From IMG/VR virus record IMGVR_UViG_2648501437_000021, positions 1 to 4,388 of that record: 4,388 nucleotides of DNA; one strand, written 5' to 3'. Positions 1-4,388 of this stretch are shown piece by piece. Both the position numbers and the translations under genes were made by a program. This DNA is from a virus (Duplodnaviria; Heunggongvirae; Uroviricota; Caudoviricetes). The number at the start of each line of letters is the position of its first letter. The stretch's first letter is position 1. The notes beneath the pieces were generated by a model that searched no databases, was not told the origin of the DNA, and saw only the letters and a program-made list of their open reading frames with translations.

Positions 1-2
1 TA

Positions 3-800
3 TCATCAAACCGCCCGACACATTTCAGTTCATGGGCGCGCAGGAGCATTATTCCGGATCGTCTGGCAACCGCTATTCTGAACGCAGCCGGGCGCACCTC
101 AGCCTTCATCAGTGGTAAGGCACCGGAAATCAAACCCTCGCCCGGCGGCAACACGCCATCGGGTCCGTCTGCAGATACGTCCGTTCGCACAATCTCCCTG
201 CTGCCGGCAGCCGGAGAGGCTGCTGCGCAGGGCTGGAGCATTAAAGATGGCGGAATTCAGTTGTCAGATGGTGTATTTAAGATCACCAAGCAGAGCAATA
301 AAACCTGGTCCCTGACGCATCCGGTGGATGACGCAATTACCCTGCTGACACAGGGCGGCAGACTGACCTGTAAGTTCCGCCTGTCAGGCGCACTGACCAA
401 CAATCAGTTCGGGCTGGGGATTTATCTGTATACGGACGCTCCCGTTCCTGACGGCGTGGCGATGACCGGGACCGGTAACCCGTTCCTGATGTCGTACTTC
501 ACCCAGACCACAGACGGCAGAGTGAATCTGATGCATCACAAGAAAGCAGGAAACACAAAGCTGGGCGAGTTCGGCAATTACAGTAACGACTGGCAGACGC
601 TGGAACTGGTGTTCACCGCCGGCAGTGCCACGGTTACTCCGAAACTGAATGGAGTGGCTGGCCCGGCATTCCAGGTCATAAAAGACAGTCTGACACTGGG
701 ACTGAATGCGCTGACGCTGACGGATATTACAAAAAATGCAGCGTATGGCGTTGAGATAGAAAGTCTGGTGCTGGAGATAAATGCACCGGCATCATCATAA
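3..800 (+). CDS. 3'-terminal part of a larger late-region gene (5' end outside window); Pro/Gly/Ser-rich linker followed by a ~200-aa C-terminal domain of unknown function
   Basis: Frame 3 is open from the first base to TAA at 798-800, with no in-frame stop or ATG/GTG/TTG before the TTG at 261, so the listed 261..800 ORF is the tail of a longer gene. Codon usage is enterobacterial (ccg, ctg, gcc, ggc, acc). Residues encoded around nt 120-180 (APEIKPSPGGNTPSGPSADTS) look like an interdomain linker. It sits directly upstream of the holin, the position where lambdoid phages carry morons such as stx and nanS-p. Product identity not established. Confidence 0.7.
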   Translation, partial: SSNRPTHFSSWARRSIIPDRLATAILNAAGRTSAFISGKAPEIKPSPGGNTPSGPSADTSVRTISLLPAAGEAAAQGWSIKDGGIQLSDGVFKITKQSNKTWSLTHPVDDAITLLTQGGRLTCKFRLSGALTNNQFGLGIYLYTDAPVPDGVAMTGTGNPFLMSYFTQTTDGRVNLMHHKKAGNTKLGEFGNYSNDWQTLELVFTAGSATVTPKLNGVAGPAFQVIKDSLTLGLNALTLTDITKNAAYGVEIESLVLEINAPASS

Positions 801-883
801 AAAGTGAGCCAGCCAAATGGAAGGTATCGTTAAACTCACCGGTAGTGTCAGTGGGTCGTCTGAGACGCCTGCATGAGTTATCA

Positions 884-914
884 GAGCCATCAGTACTTAA
901 CTGGTGGCTTTTTT
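884..914 (+). terminator. Rho-independent terminator between the upstream gene and the holin
   Basis: AGCCATCAG (884-892) pairs with CTGGTGGCT (900-908) as a 9-bp stem with one G-U wobble, 7-nt loop TACTTAA, followed by a T6 run at 909-914. Confidence 0.6.
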
Positions 915-950
915 TATTGTTGTCAGCTTCCGGATAACGGGAGACGGGGT

Positions 951-1166
951 ATGGACCAGATGGAAAAAATCACAACAGGTGTGTCATACACCACGTCAGC
1001 GGTGGGAACGGGATACTGGTTACTGCAGCTGCTGGACAAAGTCTCCCCGTCCCAGTGGGCGGCAATAGGCGTGCTGGGGAGTCTGCTGTTTGGCCTGCTG
1101 ACATATCTGACTAACCTGTATTTCAAAATCAGAGAGGACCGGCGTAAGGCGGCGCGGGGAGAGTAA
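951..1166 (+). CDS. S: Class II holin of the phage 21 S type (pinholin), 71 aa, with Met1/Met4 dual-start motif
   Basis: [71 protein letters not shown] is near-colinear with phage 21 S as I recall it: weakly hydrophobic Gly/Ala-rich TMD1 (SAR-like), TMD2, and the same charged C-terminus [17 protein letters not shown] at 940-943 lies 7 nt upstream of ATG 951; a second in-frame ATG is at 960. The listed 873 start is an upstream extension through the terminator hairpin with no RBS. Confidence 0.85.
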
Positions 1167-1170
1167 AGCG

Positions 1171-1515
1171 ATGAAGAAAAAATACGAACTGGTTGTTAAA
1201 GGGATAAATAATTACCCGAATAAGATTACTGTTACTGTGGCACTGGAAATTGGTGGGTATCCGTCACTGTTGTTGCCAGATGTGGCGATTAGTCTTGACC
1301 GTACTGAAGATGCCACGCTGGAGTTTTACGAAGCTGAGGCGAAAAAGCAGGCGAAGCAGTTTTTCATGGATGTTGCTGCCGGGTTATGTGAAGGGGATGG
1401 TCCGTTGCCGGAAAAGCGCCCCGTAATTTTAGAGGCGCAGGATGTGTTGATAACCTACAGAGGAAAACTACCGGGAATAATTACTGGTTCTCTGAAGACT
1501 CCACCGCTGGCCTGA
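1171..1515 (+). CDS. Hypothetical 114-aa soluble acidic protein inserted between holin and endolysin
   Basis: ATG lies 4 nt after the holin stop (TAA 1164-1166), suggesting translational coupling. Clean ORF with enterobacterial codon usage, no signal peptide or TM segment. Position and size resemble small uncharacterised ORFs found between holin and endolysin in some E. coli lambdoid prophages (e.g. ydfR of Qin); homology not verified. Confidence 0.65.
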   Translation: MKKKYELVVKGINNYPNKITVTVALEIGGYPSLLLPDVAISLDRTEDATLEFYEAEAKKQAKQFFMDVAAGLCEGDGPLPEKRPVILEAQDVLITYRGKLPGIITGSLKTPPLA

Positions 1516-1565
1516 AGACTTAACATATCCAGGGATTTGAAATCGATAAACCCTGATAAATATCC

Positions 1566-2099
1566 ATGAACACAAAAATCAAATACGGCCTGTCGGCTGC
1601 CGTTCTGGCGCTGATTGCCGCAGGTGCGCCTGCGCCTGAAATCCTCGACCAGTTTCTGGATGAAAAGGAAGGCAACCACACCACGGCATACCGTGATGGC
1701 GCAGGTATCTGGACCATCTGCCGCGGTGCCATCATGGTGGATAGCAAACCTGTCGTCCCGGGCATGAAGTTGTCGAAGGAAAAATGCGACCAGGTTAACG
1801 CCATTGAACGTGATAAAGCGCTGGCATGGGTGGAGAAAAACATCAAAGTGCCACTGACCGAACCCCAGAAAGCGGGGATCGCGTCATTCTGTCCGTACAA
1901 CATTGGTCCCGGTAAATGTTTCCCGTCGACGTTTTACAGACGAATTAATGCAGGTGATCGCAGGGGAGCGTGTGAGGCGATTCGCTGGTGGATTAAGGAC
2001 GGTGGCAGAGACTGCCGTATTCGCTCAAATAACTGTTACGGTCAGGTATCCCGTCGCGACCAGGAGAGTGCGCTGGCGTGCTGGGGAATTGACAGATAA
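1566..2099 (+). CDS. R: SAR endolysin, T4-lysozyme-like muramidase (GH24), 177 aa
   Basis: N-terminal Gly/Ala-rich weakly hydrophobic SAR domain (YGLSAAVLALIAAGAPAP) without Cys. Catalytic triad in canonical T4L spacing: E35 (EGNHTT), D44 (RDG), T50 (GIWT). C-terminal region resembles phage 21 R / P1 Lyz family. Paired with a pinholin upstream, as expected for pinholin-SAR lysis systems. Confidence 0.9.
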   Translation: MNTKIKYGLSAAVLALIAAGAPAPEILDQFLDEKEGNHTTAYRDGAGIWTICRGAIMVDSKPVVPGMKLSKEKCDQVNAIERDKALAWVEKNIKVPLTEPQKAGIASFCPYNIGPGKCFPSTFYRRINAGDRRGACEAIRWWIKDGGRDCRIRSNNCYGQVSRRDQESALACWGIDR

Positions 2100-2188
2100 G
2101 CAGAATATTTTGCTGAAAAATGCGGTTTGCTCACACGGACGGATAACACGAAATCCTGAGAACTGACAAAAACTAAGTGAATAAAAGT

Positions 2189-2228
2189 AAAACCCCCATT
2201 TGTTGGCTGCAAGCGGGGTTTTGTGTTT
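2189..2228 (+). terminator. Hairpin with flanking A- and T-tracts downstream of the endolysin; possible weak or bidirectional terminator or RNA processing structure
   Basis: AAAACCCC (2189-2196) pairs with GGGGTTTT (2215-2222) around an 18-nt loop that has an internal TTG/CAA mini-stem, followed by a T-rich tail to 2228 (TTTTGTGTTT). Stem is short, so termination efficiency is uncertain. Confidence 0.3.
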
Positions 2229-2258
2229 CCTGACTCCGGAAAAGTCAAAGGAGAAAGT

Positions 2259-2396
2259 GTGTTTGATTTTAGCAAACTGATTCGGGAGATTCGAGTGATG
2301 GCTGAAAAATTATCCACCTGGAAGTTCATCCTTATCTGGCTGGTGTTTGTGATTATGGCCTCCGGTTATTTCATCGGTCAGATACGCTGGTGGTGA
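2259..2396 (+). CDS. Candidate small single-pass membrane peptide (45 codons) between endolysin and Rz; not in the supplied ORF track
   Basis: Consensus SD AAGGAG (2248-2253) lies 5 nt upstream of GTG 2259. The ORF reads (M)FDFSKLIREIRVMAEKLSTWKFILIWLVFVIMASGYFIGQIRWW and stops at TGA 2394-2396, one base before the Rz ATG (2398). It has a ~20-residue hydrophobic segment flanked by charged and aromatic residues. An alternative start is ATG 2298 (32 aa). Confidence 0.4.
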   Translation: MFDFSKLIREIRVMAEKLSTWKFILIWLVFVIMASGYFIGQIRWW

Positions 2397-2397
2397 A

Positions 2398-2892
2398 ATG
2401 AACCGCGTACTGTGCGTGGTCATCATTGCCCTGCTGGTGGCCTGTGGTGCGCTTAGTCTGGGGCTGAATCATTACCGTGATAACGCCATAACCTACAAAG
2501 AGCAGCGCGATAAAAAAGTCAGTGAGCTGGAGCTGGCAAATGCAACCATTACTGATATGCAGCAGCGCCAGCGTGATGTTGCTGCACTTGATGCCAGATA
2601 CTCGAGGGAATTAGCCGATGCGAGAGCTGAAAATGAAACTCTTCGCGCTGACGTTGCCGCTGGTCACCGCAGCCTGCGGATCAACGCCACCTGTCCAGGT
2701 CCCGTGCGTGAAGCCACCGGCACCGCCCGCGTGGATAATGCAACCGGCCCCCAACTGGCAGACACCGTTACACGGGATTATTTCACCCTCAGAGAGCGGC
2801 TGATGACGATGCAGAAGCAACTGGAAGGGGCACAGGACTATATCCGCACTCAGTGTACTAAGCAGGCTTTTTATTATCCGGAGGATGTATGA
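2398..2892 (+). CDS. Rz: Rz i-spanin (inner-membrane spanin subunit), 164 aa
   Basis: N-terminal TMD (VLCVVIIALLVACGALSLGL) followed by a coiled-coil-prone periplasmic domain; extensive colinearity with lambda Rz as recalled (NHYRDNAITYK.QRDK, ITDMQ.RQRDVAALDA, ERDYFTLRERL.TMQKQLEG). Confidence 0.9.
   Translation: MNRVLCVVIIALLVACGALSLGLNHYRDNAITYKEQRDKKVSELELANATITDMQQRQRDVAALDARYSRELADARAENETLRADVAAGHRSLRINATCPGPVREATGTARVDNATGPQLADTVTRDYFTLRERLMTMQKQLEGAQDYIRTQCTKQAFYYPEDV
2618..2803 (+). CDS. Rz1: Rz1 o-spanin (outer-membrane lipoprotein spanin subunit), embedded in the +1 frame of Rz
   Basis: Lipoprotein signal peptide with lipobox ending ...LVTAAC, then a proline-rich mature region (CVKPPAPPAWIMQPAPNWQTPLHGIISPSESG) closely matching lambda Rz1 as recalled. 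Lies entirely inside Rz in a different frame. Start could be ATG 2618 (lambda-like length to the lipobox Cys) or ATG 2633. Confidence 0.85.
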   Translation: MRELKMKLFALTLPLVTAACGSTPPVQVPCVKPPAPPAWIMQPAPNWQTPLHGIISPSESG

Positions 2893-3113
2893 AGAAATTG
2901 CAGGTAACGGTAAAACCTTTTCAGGGAACAATTCCGTTCCGTGTTTTGCAACATGGCCGTGTTCTGCTTGAAGAGGTGTTCAGAGGTAAATGCACTGAAT
3001 GTTATTCACGAACATATGAAGTGAATGCCACGCATGAAGAATTCACCGTTGAGTGTGTGATGAATACTGATAAATGCCGAATGGTATCCGCTGAATTACA
3101 GCCAGTGTGTTGA
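2889..3113 (+). CDS. Small Cys-rich hypothetical protein (74 aa), translationally coupled to Rz
   Basis: ATG 2889 overlaps the Rz stop (ATGA overlap, TGA 2890-2892). GGAGG at 2879-2883 lies 5 nt upstream. No signal peptide. Five cysteines including a CxxC pair (GKCTEC) plus C56, C63 and a C-terminal Cys, suggesting a small metal-binding or redox fold. No family recognised. Confidence 0.65.
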   Translation: MKKLQVTVKPFQGTIPFRVLQHGRVLLEEVFRGKCTECYSRTYEVNATHEEFTVECVMNTDKCRMVSAELQPVC

Positions 3114-3394
3114 GCGACCTTATTATCCATGCGCGGTATTGTCGCCGTATTCCTGCATTAACAGAGACCGCAGCCCGACAGGGAGACTCCTCTGCGAGAG
3201 TGTGCGGGGATAATCAAAAACGATACACACCGGGGTTTACCGCGTAAACGGAGCGCGGCGTTGTCCCCTCATGGTCGCTGGTCCGGTGCGATGGTGGAAG
3301 AAACCGGACGATGTGTTACCTCGCAAACTCTGTTATGTCATGTGTCTGATTTGTGATTTAAGTCGGATAATTGTCATTGCCATTAAGCAGAGGA

Positions 3395-3437
3395 TTGATG
3401 ACCGACAGGGCTGCATTGTTAGAATAAGACTTATTCT
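3395..3437 (+). promoter_or_regulatory. Candidate sigma70 promoter with a palindrome over the -10 region, upstream of the lipoprotein gene
   Basis: TTGATG (3395-3400) as -35 and TAGAAT (3420-3425) as -10, with a suboptimal 19-bp spacer. The -10 is embedded in a perfect inverted repeat AGAATAAG-a-CTTATTCT (3421-3437). AT-rich context about 20-60 bp upstream of the lipoprotein start. Confidence 0.25.
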
Positions 3438-3457
3438 TATCTATGCCGGGAATAAAA

Positions 3458-3784
3458 ATGAAAAGAAATCTTCCGTTAATTATTTTGTTGTCTTCTTTGG
3501 TTATGGGCTGTACGCAACATAAAACAGATATGCCTCGACAGTTGGTTAAGGCATTACCACAATATCCGGCCTATGCCGCGGCAAATTATATAAAGGGACG
3601 GGTTGATGTGAAGTTTGATATTGGTGCTGATGGTACTGTCACCCGAATTGAGTTTATCCGTTCAGAGCCGCACCATCTGTTTGATGAGCAGGTTGTAAAG
3701 GCGATGGCAAAATGGCGATTTGAGAAGGACAAGCCGCGTAAAGGCGTGAAGAAAACATTTATCTTTAGTCCTTCAGCACCCTGA
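3458..3784 (+). CDS. Lipoprotein consisting of a TonB C-terminal domain (TonB_C fold), 108 aa; predicted outer-membrane anchored
   Basis: Signal peptide MKRNLPLIILLSSLVMGC with lipobox VMG-C and Thr at +2 (no Asp, so Lol sorting to the outer membrane is predicted). The mature part, LPQYPAYAAANYIKGRVDVKFDIGADGTVTRIEFIRSEPHHLFDEQVVKAMAKWRFEKDKPRKGVKKTFIF, aligns motif-for-motif with the E. coli TonB C-terminal domain as recalled (PQYPA, G.V.VKFD, DG.V, S.P, F, V..AM..WR.E..KP). GGGA at 3449-3452 lies 5 nt upstream of ATG 3458; the listed 3443 start lacks an RBS. Confidence 0.8.
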   Translation: MKRNLPLIILLSSLVMGCTQHKTDMPRQLVKALPQYPAYAAANYIKGRVDVKFDIGADGTVTRIEFIRSEPHHLFDEQVVKAMAKWRFEKDKPRKGVKKTFIFSPSAP

Positions 3785-4241
3785 TTATTTTATCAGAAGT
3801 TAATTATCACTCTGTTGCTATTCAGTACATCCCTGCAGGGTAAAGTCTTGTTTCGCCGGATATGAAGATGAAATATTGTTAGAAGACAGTAGCTACCGGT
3901 TCCTGTAACCGAACGTTCATTTCTCGTTATTTTTCATGCTGGCCGGGCGCAGGTGCTTTGCATCTGTTGCCAGCCTTCTCCTGCAGGCTTCAATAACCCA
4001 TGCCGAAAAATTACCCGATCCCTTACGTTCAAGGGCAATATGGATTTGATTAATCATCTGGTTTGGGAAGCTTTATTTTTTGATGACATTGTGTTTTTCC
4101 GTGTTCAGTGCTGCTGATTTGTATTGTCTTAAGATGTCTTTACGTTAAGTTGACACAGATCAATTAATGCATGACTTGGACAAAATTGATTATTTGTCGT
4201 GGTTTTATGGTGTACGTGGGATGTGTGATGGTATTTATATA

Positions 4242-4388
4242 AATGATAATTATTATCATTTATTGGGTCCTTTCCGGCGATCCGGCAGGCTACGGGGCGG
4301 CGACCTCGCGGGTTTTCGCTATTTATGAAAATTTTCCGGTTTAAGGCGTTTCCGTTCTTCTTCGTCGTAACTTAATGTTTTTATTTAA
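4242..4388 (+). other. Lambda-type cos region (cosQ-side palindrome, cosN, start of cosB); continues beyond the window
   Basis: From 4295 to 4388 the sequence matches the left end of phage lambda as I recall it (GGGCGGCGACCTCGCGGGTTTTCGCTATTTATGAAAATTTTCCGGTTTAAGGCGTTTCCGTTCTTCTTCGTC.TAACTTAATGTTTTTATTTAA) with one mismatch. The sequence just upstream (GGTCCTTTCCGG.GATCCG.CAGG.TACG) resembles the lambda right end. An 8-bp inverted repeat ATGATAAT-t-ATTATCAT lies at 4242-4258. Confidence 0.8.
4295..4306 (+). other. cosN cohesive-end sequence (12-nt GGGCGGCGACCT)
   Basis: Exact match to the lambda 12-nt cohesive end as recalled, in the expected context between the right-end-like and left-end-like flanks. 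Confidence 0.75.

Follow-up and report, generated by a model that had tools for sequence, protein, structure and literature searches.

In bacteriophage lambda, the cos site leads from cosQ through cosN to cosB, the last of which carries the elements R3-I1-R2-R1, with R2 in inverted orientation, and extends to about bp 170 of the genome. These sub-sites have been delimited closely: cosQ is a strongly conserved stretch of 7 bp (PMC4669245), cosN has been defined as a core of 16 bp (PMC9026076), segment I2 occupies bp 18–50 between cosN and cosB (PMC4856287), and in R3, as defined in two of these studies, bp 56 and 59 discriminate lambda from phage 21 (PMC9026076, PMC4669245). The DNA next to cos is also where recombination between lambda and defective prophages clusters (PMC3945230). 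In E. coli K-12, a site called 'nohA -233' was gel-shifted with Fur by Chen et al., having been recovered earlier by Fur titration, and a similar strong Fur site was listed for nohB (PMC2189734).

The DNA analysed here (henceforth the window) is one entire draft contig of 4388 bp (JHSO01000142.1 of GCA_001266005.1), in which the initial annotation had placed a lambda-type cos site at positions 4242–4388. We aligned the window directly to the lambda genome (NC_001416), with the right end of the latter joined to its left end, and the match of the window end to lambda was confirmed to exceed by far what chance would give. Lambda bp 1–94 are identical to window 4295–4388 at 93 of 94 positions, the single mismatch, noted as such in the initial annotation, being a G at 4367 in place of lambda A73 (position +73). 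To the left of the nick, 49 of 60 bp agree with the lambda right end without gaps. The stretch of about 50 bp that had been described as resembling this right end does so at 83% identity, again ungapped, with nine mismatches over the 53 bp from 4242 to 4294 (at 4242, 4251, 4259, 4262–4264, 4278, 4285 and 4290) and an identical cosQ; its extent had been set too short, as the likeness reaches back to window position 3983 (lambda 48169) when indels are included.

The sub-sites that could be recognized by this alignment are collected in the table, together with the genes of the window. For cosQ, the lambda coordinates are those that we take to be the signal as given by Wieczorek & Feiss (2001). 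The cohesive-end sequence GGGCGGCGACCT is found at 4295–4306, with CG dinucleotides beside both nick positions, and its place there would put the top-strand nick at 4294/4295 and the bottom-strand nick at 4306/4307; the first of these is the physical genome end that had been proposed before. The pattern GGGTCCT-N21-CG/GGGCGGCGACCT/CG was invariant in all of the 13 loci fetched. Since cosQ, the cosN core, I2 and R3 are all identical to lambda, we read 4265–4388 with high confidence as a cos site, truncated within cosB, that belongs to a lambdoid prophage and has the packaging specificity of lambda. The leftmost part of the interval originally assigned to cos does not belong to it in this sense: positions 4244–4258 form a palindrome that is a predicted Fur box with no known role as a packaging signal (see below).

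Predicted features of the 4388-bp window. Gene families were assigned by Pfam across the window; cos sub-sites and their functions are given by homology with lambda.
Feature	Position	Strand	Remarks
DUF6645, 3' end of nanS-p-type esterase gene	1–800		Pfam
S21-family holin ('Bacteriophage P21 holin S', PF04971)	951–1166	+	Pfam, 2e-33, 63/64 model positions
DUF1327	1171–1515	+	Pfam; between holin and endolysin
SAR-type lysozyme (Phage_lysozyme, PF00959)	1566–2099	+	Pfam
Rz, 164 aa	2398–2892	+	Pfam
Rz1, embedded in Rz	2618–2803	+	Pfam
TonB_C lipoprotein, 108 aa	3458–3784	+	Pfam TonB_C, 2.4e-15; moron between Rz and cos
DUF3950 (YlcI/YnfO-family) gene, 46 aa	3917–4057	-	PF13132, 8e-19; divergent from cos
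Predicted Fur-box core TGATAATtATTATCA (7-1-7 palindrome)	4244–4258		perfect match to TGATAATnATTATCA; full arms 4241–4261
cosQ GGGTCCT (packaging-termination signal)	4265–4271	+	lambda 48473–48479, at lambda spacing to the nick
cosQ-cosN spacer	4272–4292		lambda length; three substitutions (4278 C, 4285 G, 4290 C)
cosN core, 16 bp (12-bp cohesive end 4295–4306 and 2 bp on either side)	4293–4308		16/16 identical to lambda
I2, AT-rich statically bent segment between cosN and cosB	4312–4344		identical to lambda bp 18–50, no indel
R3, Nu1 (terminase small-subunit) binding site of cosB	4344–4359	+	identical to lambda bp 50–65
I1 (IHF) segment of cosB, start	4360–4388		ends with the contig at lambda +94; carries 4367 G

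The few differences from lambda within the site are shared with other phages and prophages. The spacer between cosQ and cosN also varies in other cos types (loci L005, L006 and L009 of our comparison), and all three of its variants in the window recur in L020, L001, L002 and L023. Among isolated phages, PhiR49_1 and Kati have both the first of them (4278 C) and the G at +73, and PhiR30_1 has 4278 C only; the G at +73 also occurs in L020, L001, L002 and L014. The other two variants, 4285 G and 4290 C, were seen in the prophages L020, L001, L002 and L023 and in none of the isolated phages examined. Both fall outside the 16-bp core of cosN; by an older definition of cosN as 22 bp, position 4290 is its outermost base. 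An open reading frame of 53 aa that extends across cos (4167–4328) was discarded as spurious, since Fur box, cosQ and cosN all lie inside it. RefSeq has no gene across cos in L001, L002 and L023, and some phage records list hypothetical proteins there.

The cohesive ends by themselves would say little about the terminase that recognizes them. In the loci compared here, identical cohesive ends precede at least three other cosB types (those of L023, of L005, and of L006 and L009), and cosQ, cosN and I2 are common to phages of different packaging specificities (PMC4669245), so that the window might in principle share just these parts with lambda and carry a 21-like, N15-like or other specificity. 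However, the non-lambda cosB types part from lambda at about +42, whereas the window remains lambda-identical from +42 to +94 except for +73. Its R3 is unlike the cosB of L023, L005, L006 and L009, and the identity to lambda covers both bp 55–63, which are contacted by Nu1, and the specificity positions 56 and 59. This stretch makes a non-lambda specificity very improbable, and the part of cosB that is present, being lambda-like through R3, already assigns lambda specificity.

One example of a departure is L023 (E. coli E2348/69), which follows the left flank of the window at 99.7% identity up to lambda +41, cosQ and cosN included, and from lambda +42 onwards continues with another cosB and a 182-aa TerS that is 52% identical to Nu1 (L023 5001–6075). 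We had labelled this cosB and TerS as phage-21 type and dropped the label when a megablast search of the phage collection (50,697 records) returned no close relative. Accordingly, this packaging-specificity type is absent among the sequenced phages of that collection.

Identity at R3 also bears on a second way in which a lambda-like cos may arise. Phage-inducible chromosomal islands (PICIs) mimic cosQ and cosN of lambda, with near-identical sequences at equal spacing (PMC9026076), and hijack the terminase of a helper phage through an Rpp-specific site that replaces R3. Nothing in their cos sites corresponds to a phage R3 (PMC9026076), but at lambda bp 50–65 the window has the R3 of lambda; moreover, the neighbours of the site in the window make up a phage late region (holin, endolysin, Rz/Rz1), and the loci that serve as proxies for the missing right flank continue with Nu1 and not with rpp. 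Given an R3 identical to that of lambda, a PICI origin of the cos site is hardly credible.

That the site breaks off inside cosB, at lambda +94, is explained by the window being a complete draft contig. The 98 nt that follow the last window-specific SNP (4290), namely 4291–4388, equal k-1 for a k of 99; speculatively, a second copy of a lambda-type cos in the source genome may have broken the assembly at this point.

For what lies beyond, we turned to genomes in which the same region continues. A 5.24-Mb contig (L020, GCA_900449155.1) is collinear with all 4388 bp of the window at 98.8% identity. Every one of the 52 differences between the two (51 substitutions and one gap) falls within positions 1–1817, which leaves the last 2571 bp (1818–4388) identical. 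Past +94, this contig has R2 and R1 equal to those of lambda and an ATG at +191, and its terminase proteins, a Nu1 of 181 aa and an A of 641 aa, and its W protein are each 100% identical to those of lambda. Next come genes for portal, an S49 protease, decoration and capsid; the Nu1-A-W-B-C-D-E series is intact. In the complete genomes L001 and L002, which are about 99% identical to window 3129–4388, Nu1 is 98–99% and A 99.4% identical to lambda, and the same head genes come next. We infer that Nu1/A-type terminase genes also follow in the source genome of the window; the terminase of lambda specificity that had been predicted just past its end is thus borne out by proxy, in these three genomes.

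The same comparison bears on whether the order of genes in the window is real. As a short contig bounded by repeats, it could conceivably be chimeric, with the lysis cassette of one prophage artificially joined to the lambda cos of another from the same poly-lysogenic draft genome, and repeats shared by lambdoid prophages do give rise to frequent mis-joins in assemblies. Yet the cos-proximal half matches L001 and L002 at about 99%, and, as L020, assembled independently, has precisely this order from one end of the 4388 bp to the other, an artificial junction is the most improbable of the explanations considered in this work.

By homology with lambda, the site would work as follows. During lytic growth, Nu1 would bind R3 together with R2 and R1, which should lie just past the window, and IHF would bend the DNA at I1, anchoring the large terminase subunit gpA. 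The latter would then nick the top strand at 4294/4295 and its complement at 4306/4307, producing 12-nt 5' cohesive ends of the sequence GGGCGGCGACCT, and packaging of the DNA would proceed rightwards from cos until it is terminated by cosQ (4265–4271) and cosN of the following cos along the concatemer. Both the definitions of the sub-sites and this mechanism come from earlier work (PMC4669245, PMC4856287, PMC9026076), and actual use of the present site in packaging is likewise deduced from its likeness to lambda.

There is one serious qualification to the last point, which leaves the identification of the cos site unaffected. A genuine lambda-type cos may belong to a decayed (cryptic) prophage of the kind of Qin or DLP12 that has no complete terminase and head module and does not package itself. 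The segment from cosQ to +94 is present in 3982 of 5426 complete E. coli genomes, cryptic Qin included, and in Qin the Nu1 homologue nohA directly abuts the tail-fibre gene stfQ. In E2348/69 (L023) the same left flank stands beside truncated head genes, and the genomes L007, L008 and L011 contain IS-riddled versions of this late region. On the other hand, the head series is intact in L020, the one genome that is collinear with the window throughout, and also in L001 and L002 after the cos module that they share with the window, and the lysis ORFs of the window are themselves all intact. We therefore see a decayed prophage as a real possibility, if short of an even chance. As many of the genomic copies sit in decayed prophages, a near-perfect cos is no proof by itself of packaging competence.

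A lambda-type cos is anything but rare in these bacteria. With a coverage of at least 80%, the cosQ-to-+94 segment is found in about three quarters of the complete E. coli genomes (the 3982 of 5426 mentioned above), in up to eight copies per genome. In the phage collection, 121 records match the cos region, including those of lambda, HK629/630 and DE3 (annotated 'cos site' feature). The end of the window is, then, an ordinary, textbook lambda-type cos in an E. coli-type lambdoid prophage, of a kind that is already known. What its recognition provides is, first, the ends of the virion genome and the type of packaging for this prophage family (cos, with a 12-nt 5' overhang and lambda specificity) and, second, the practical expectation that the site should be recognised by helpers of lambda specificity and by lambda packaging extracts.

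The remainder of the window shows where the cos module meets DNA of another provenance. Positions 1–3308 are 97% identical to Stx1a phages and H-19B, and positions 3129–4388 match the lambda-cos group (L001, L002), which agrees with the modular mosaicism noted in the initial annotation. The two parts overlap in a segment of 180 bp (3129–3308) that comes after a YdfR-family ORF and occurs in almost every related locus (L005–L022), and this segment is likely to be the recombination joint at which they were exchanged. The identical Rz of 164 aa recurs in the Stx prophages L016–L019, L021 and L022, where the genes after the cassette are DUF3950, HNH and a Terminase_2/TerL module, and in L020, where lambda cos and Nu1/A come next. 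Judged by these comparisons, the late region is composed of a lysis cassette like that of Stx1 phages and H-19B and of a YdfR/TonB_C-lipoprotein/DUF3950/cos module of other E. coli prophages. It thus offers a clean example of module exchange, in which one Stx-phage-type lysis cassette is joined either to HNH/TerS/TerL or to lambda cos and Nu1/A.

The lysis genes had been called phage-21-like, as opposed to lambda-like, and at the level of gene family and architecture this holds. The gene of the class II holin, a predicted pinholin, has a dual start (Met1/Met4), and the hydropathy profile of its product shows a weakly hydrophobic first and a strongly hydrophobic second transmembrane domain (TMD1 and TMD2). 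In the lysozyme, the N-terminal segment of residues 8–25 (GLSAAVLALIAAGAPAPE) consists to 56% of Gly, Ala and Ser, which is SAR-like as far as sequence goes, and the catalytic motif E35-X8-D44-X5-T50 is present. A dual-start holin next to a Gly/Ala-rich lysozyme with the E-X8-D-X5-T motif makes the cassette phage-21-type in architecture. However, the endolysin is only about 30% identical to the R21 chain in the PDB structure 3HDE (E=6e-16, the comparison being with this chain only), and the nearest relatives of the cassette are the Stx1a phages and H-19B. The DUF1327 protein encoded between holin and endolysin is very widespread and is also found in loci that are not collinear with the window. 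Between the endolysin gene and an ORF of 57 aa lies a hairpin, AAAACCCC-N18-GGGGTTTT, followed by a T-rich run (at about 2186–2225), which looks like a terminator with a loop too large for the terminator scan. The 57-aa ORF itself (2223–2396) is membrane-like and precedes Rz.

From Rz to cos, the gene content had been described as different from that of lambda. This is so for the YdfR-family ORF and the TonB_C lipoprotein, which stand in the place of bor; the lipoprotein, which the annotations of L001, L002 and L023 call 'TonB family protein', is widespread in E. coli prophages (WP_000828067-like). The description needs a qualification for the DUF3950 gene, which RefSeq annotates in L001 and L002 and, as ynfO, in Qin. 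At about 48.1–48.3 kb of lambda (L004), the minus strand carries an unannotated ORF (...MIEQINIALEQKGSGNFSAWVIEACRRRL...) homologous to this DUF3950/YnfO gene, which is therefore common to lambda and not a different moron. The lambda-like DNA of the window starts inside the gene, at 3983, and its protein is N-terminally shorter than the lambda homologue, at a 27-bp deletion relative to lambda. Upstream of the gene, positions 4098–4200 form a well-conserved non-coding block with lambda 48304–48414, the DNA being reshuffled on both sides. This block has no consensus promoter and no Rfam match, nor did any other part of the window match an Rfam family at E≤1.

Between this block and cosQ stands the Fur box mentioned above. 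Its core ends 6 bp to the left of cosQ and is the window's single match to TGATAATnATTATCA, where chance would give 0.01. A Fur motif at a like spacing to cosQ (6–7 bp) is present in lambda itself (48455–48469), in L001, L002, L009, L014, L020 and L023, and in Qin, and 13 of 14 bases are matched in L005 and L006. The motif in Qin (NC_000913.3 1636593–1636607) has its centre exactly 233 bp upstream of the ATG of nohA, and the Fur box of the window is positionally equivalent to this 'nohA -233' site of K-12. The two are not identical: the central base is T in the window and C in both Qin and lambda, and the flanks differ too.

Lambda and the majority of the lambda-like cos regions compared keep this spacing, whichever of at least three cosB types they carry (a fourth type matches at 13 of 14 bases), which suggests that the Fur box could be functional. 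That it is a functional part of the cos neighbourhood in the biology of lambdoid phages and prophages, rather than a bystander, is an idea that we put forward as a rather unlikely one. One role might be that of a promoter or operator, repressed by Fur and so responsive to iron, that controls the divergent DUF3950 gene or transcription running on into the terminase genes of a prophage; alternatively, bound Fur might modulate termination at cosQ. When positions 2050–4388 were scanned for consensus promoters and terminators, the matches did not exceed chance and none lay in the cos region, and for this reason we claim no promoter at the Fur box. The papers that define the cos sub-sites (PMC4669245, PMC4856287, PMC9026076) do not mention a Fur site. 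Beyond annotation, the importance of the locus is slight, and it is this box alone that lends it some research value.

Set against the known systems, the site is closest to the cos of lambda, with which it shares the cohesive end, its CG flanks, cosQ, the spacing from cosQ to cosN, I2 and R3 in identical form. It differs from lambda by the three spacer substitutions (4278, 4285 and 4290) and the one at +73, by the reshuffling through indels of the sequence to the left of the Fur box, and by its upstream genes, which are not S105, R and bor. The cos-nohA region of K-12 Qin and the cos-nohB region of DLP12 have Fur box, cosQ, cosN and cosB in the same order, and Qin also has the divergent DUF3950 gene (ynfO) to the left of cos; Qin is a decayed prophage in which nohA has come to abut stfQ. 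With the late region of Stx1a phages and H-19B, the window has in common the 3' end of the nanS-p-type esterase gene, holin, DUF1327, lysozyme, Rz/Rz1 and the YdfR-family ORF, whereas in the Stx prophages the cassette is followed by HNH/Terminase_2/TerL instead of lambda cos and Nu1/A; the 4388 bp of the window contain no stx gene. The lysis system of phage 21 is matched by the S21-family dual-start holin with its weak TMD1 and strong TMD2 and by the E-X8-D-X5-T lysozyme, and departed from by the low identity of the endolysin to R21 (about 30%) and by the DUF1327 gene inserted between holin and endolysin. Finally, the cos sites of EcCICFT073 and related PICIs resemble the present one in their lambda-like cosQ, cosN and spacing (PMC9026076), and differ at bp 48–65, where they have an Rpp-specific site followed by rpp and the window has the R3 of lambda in the company of phage late genes.
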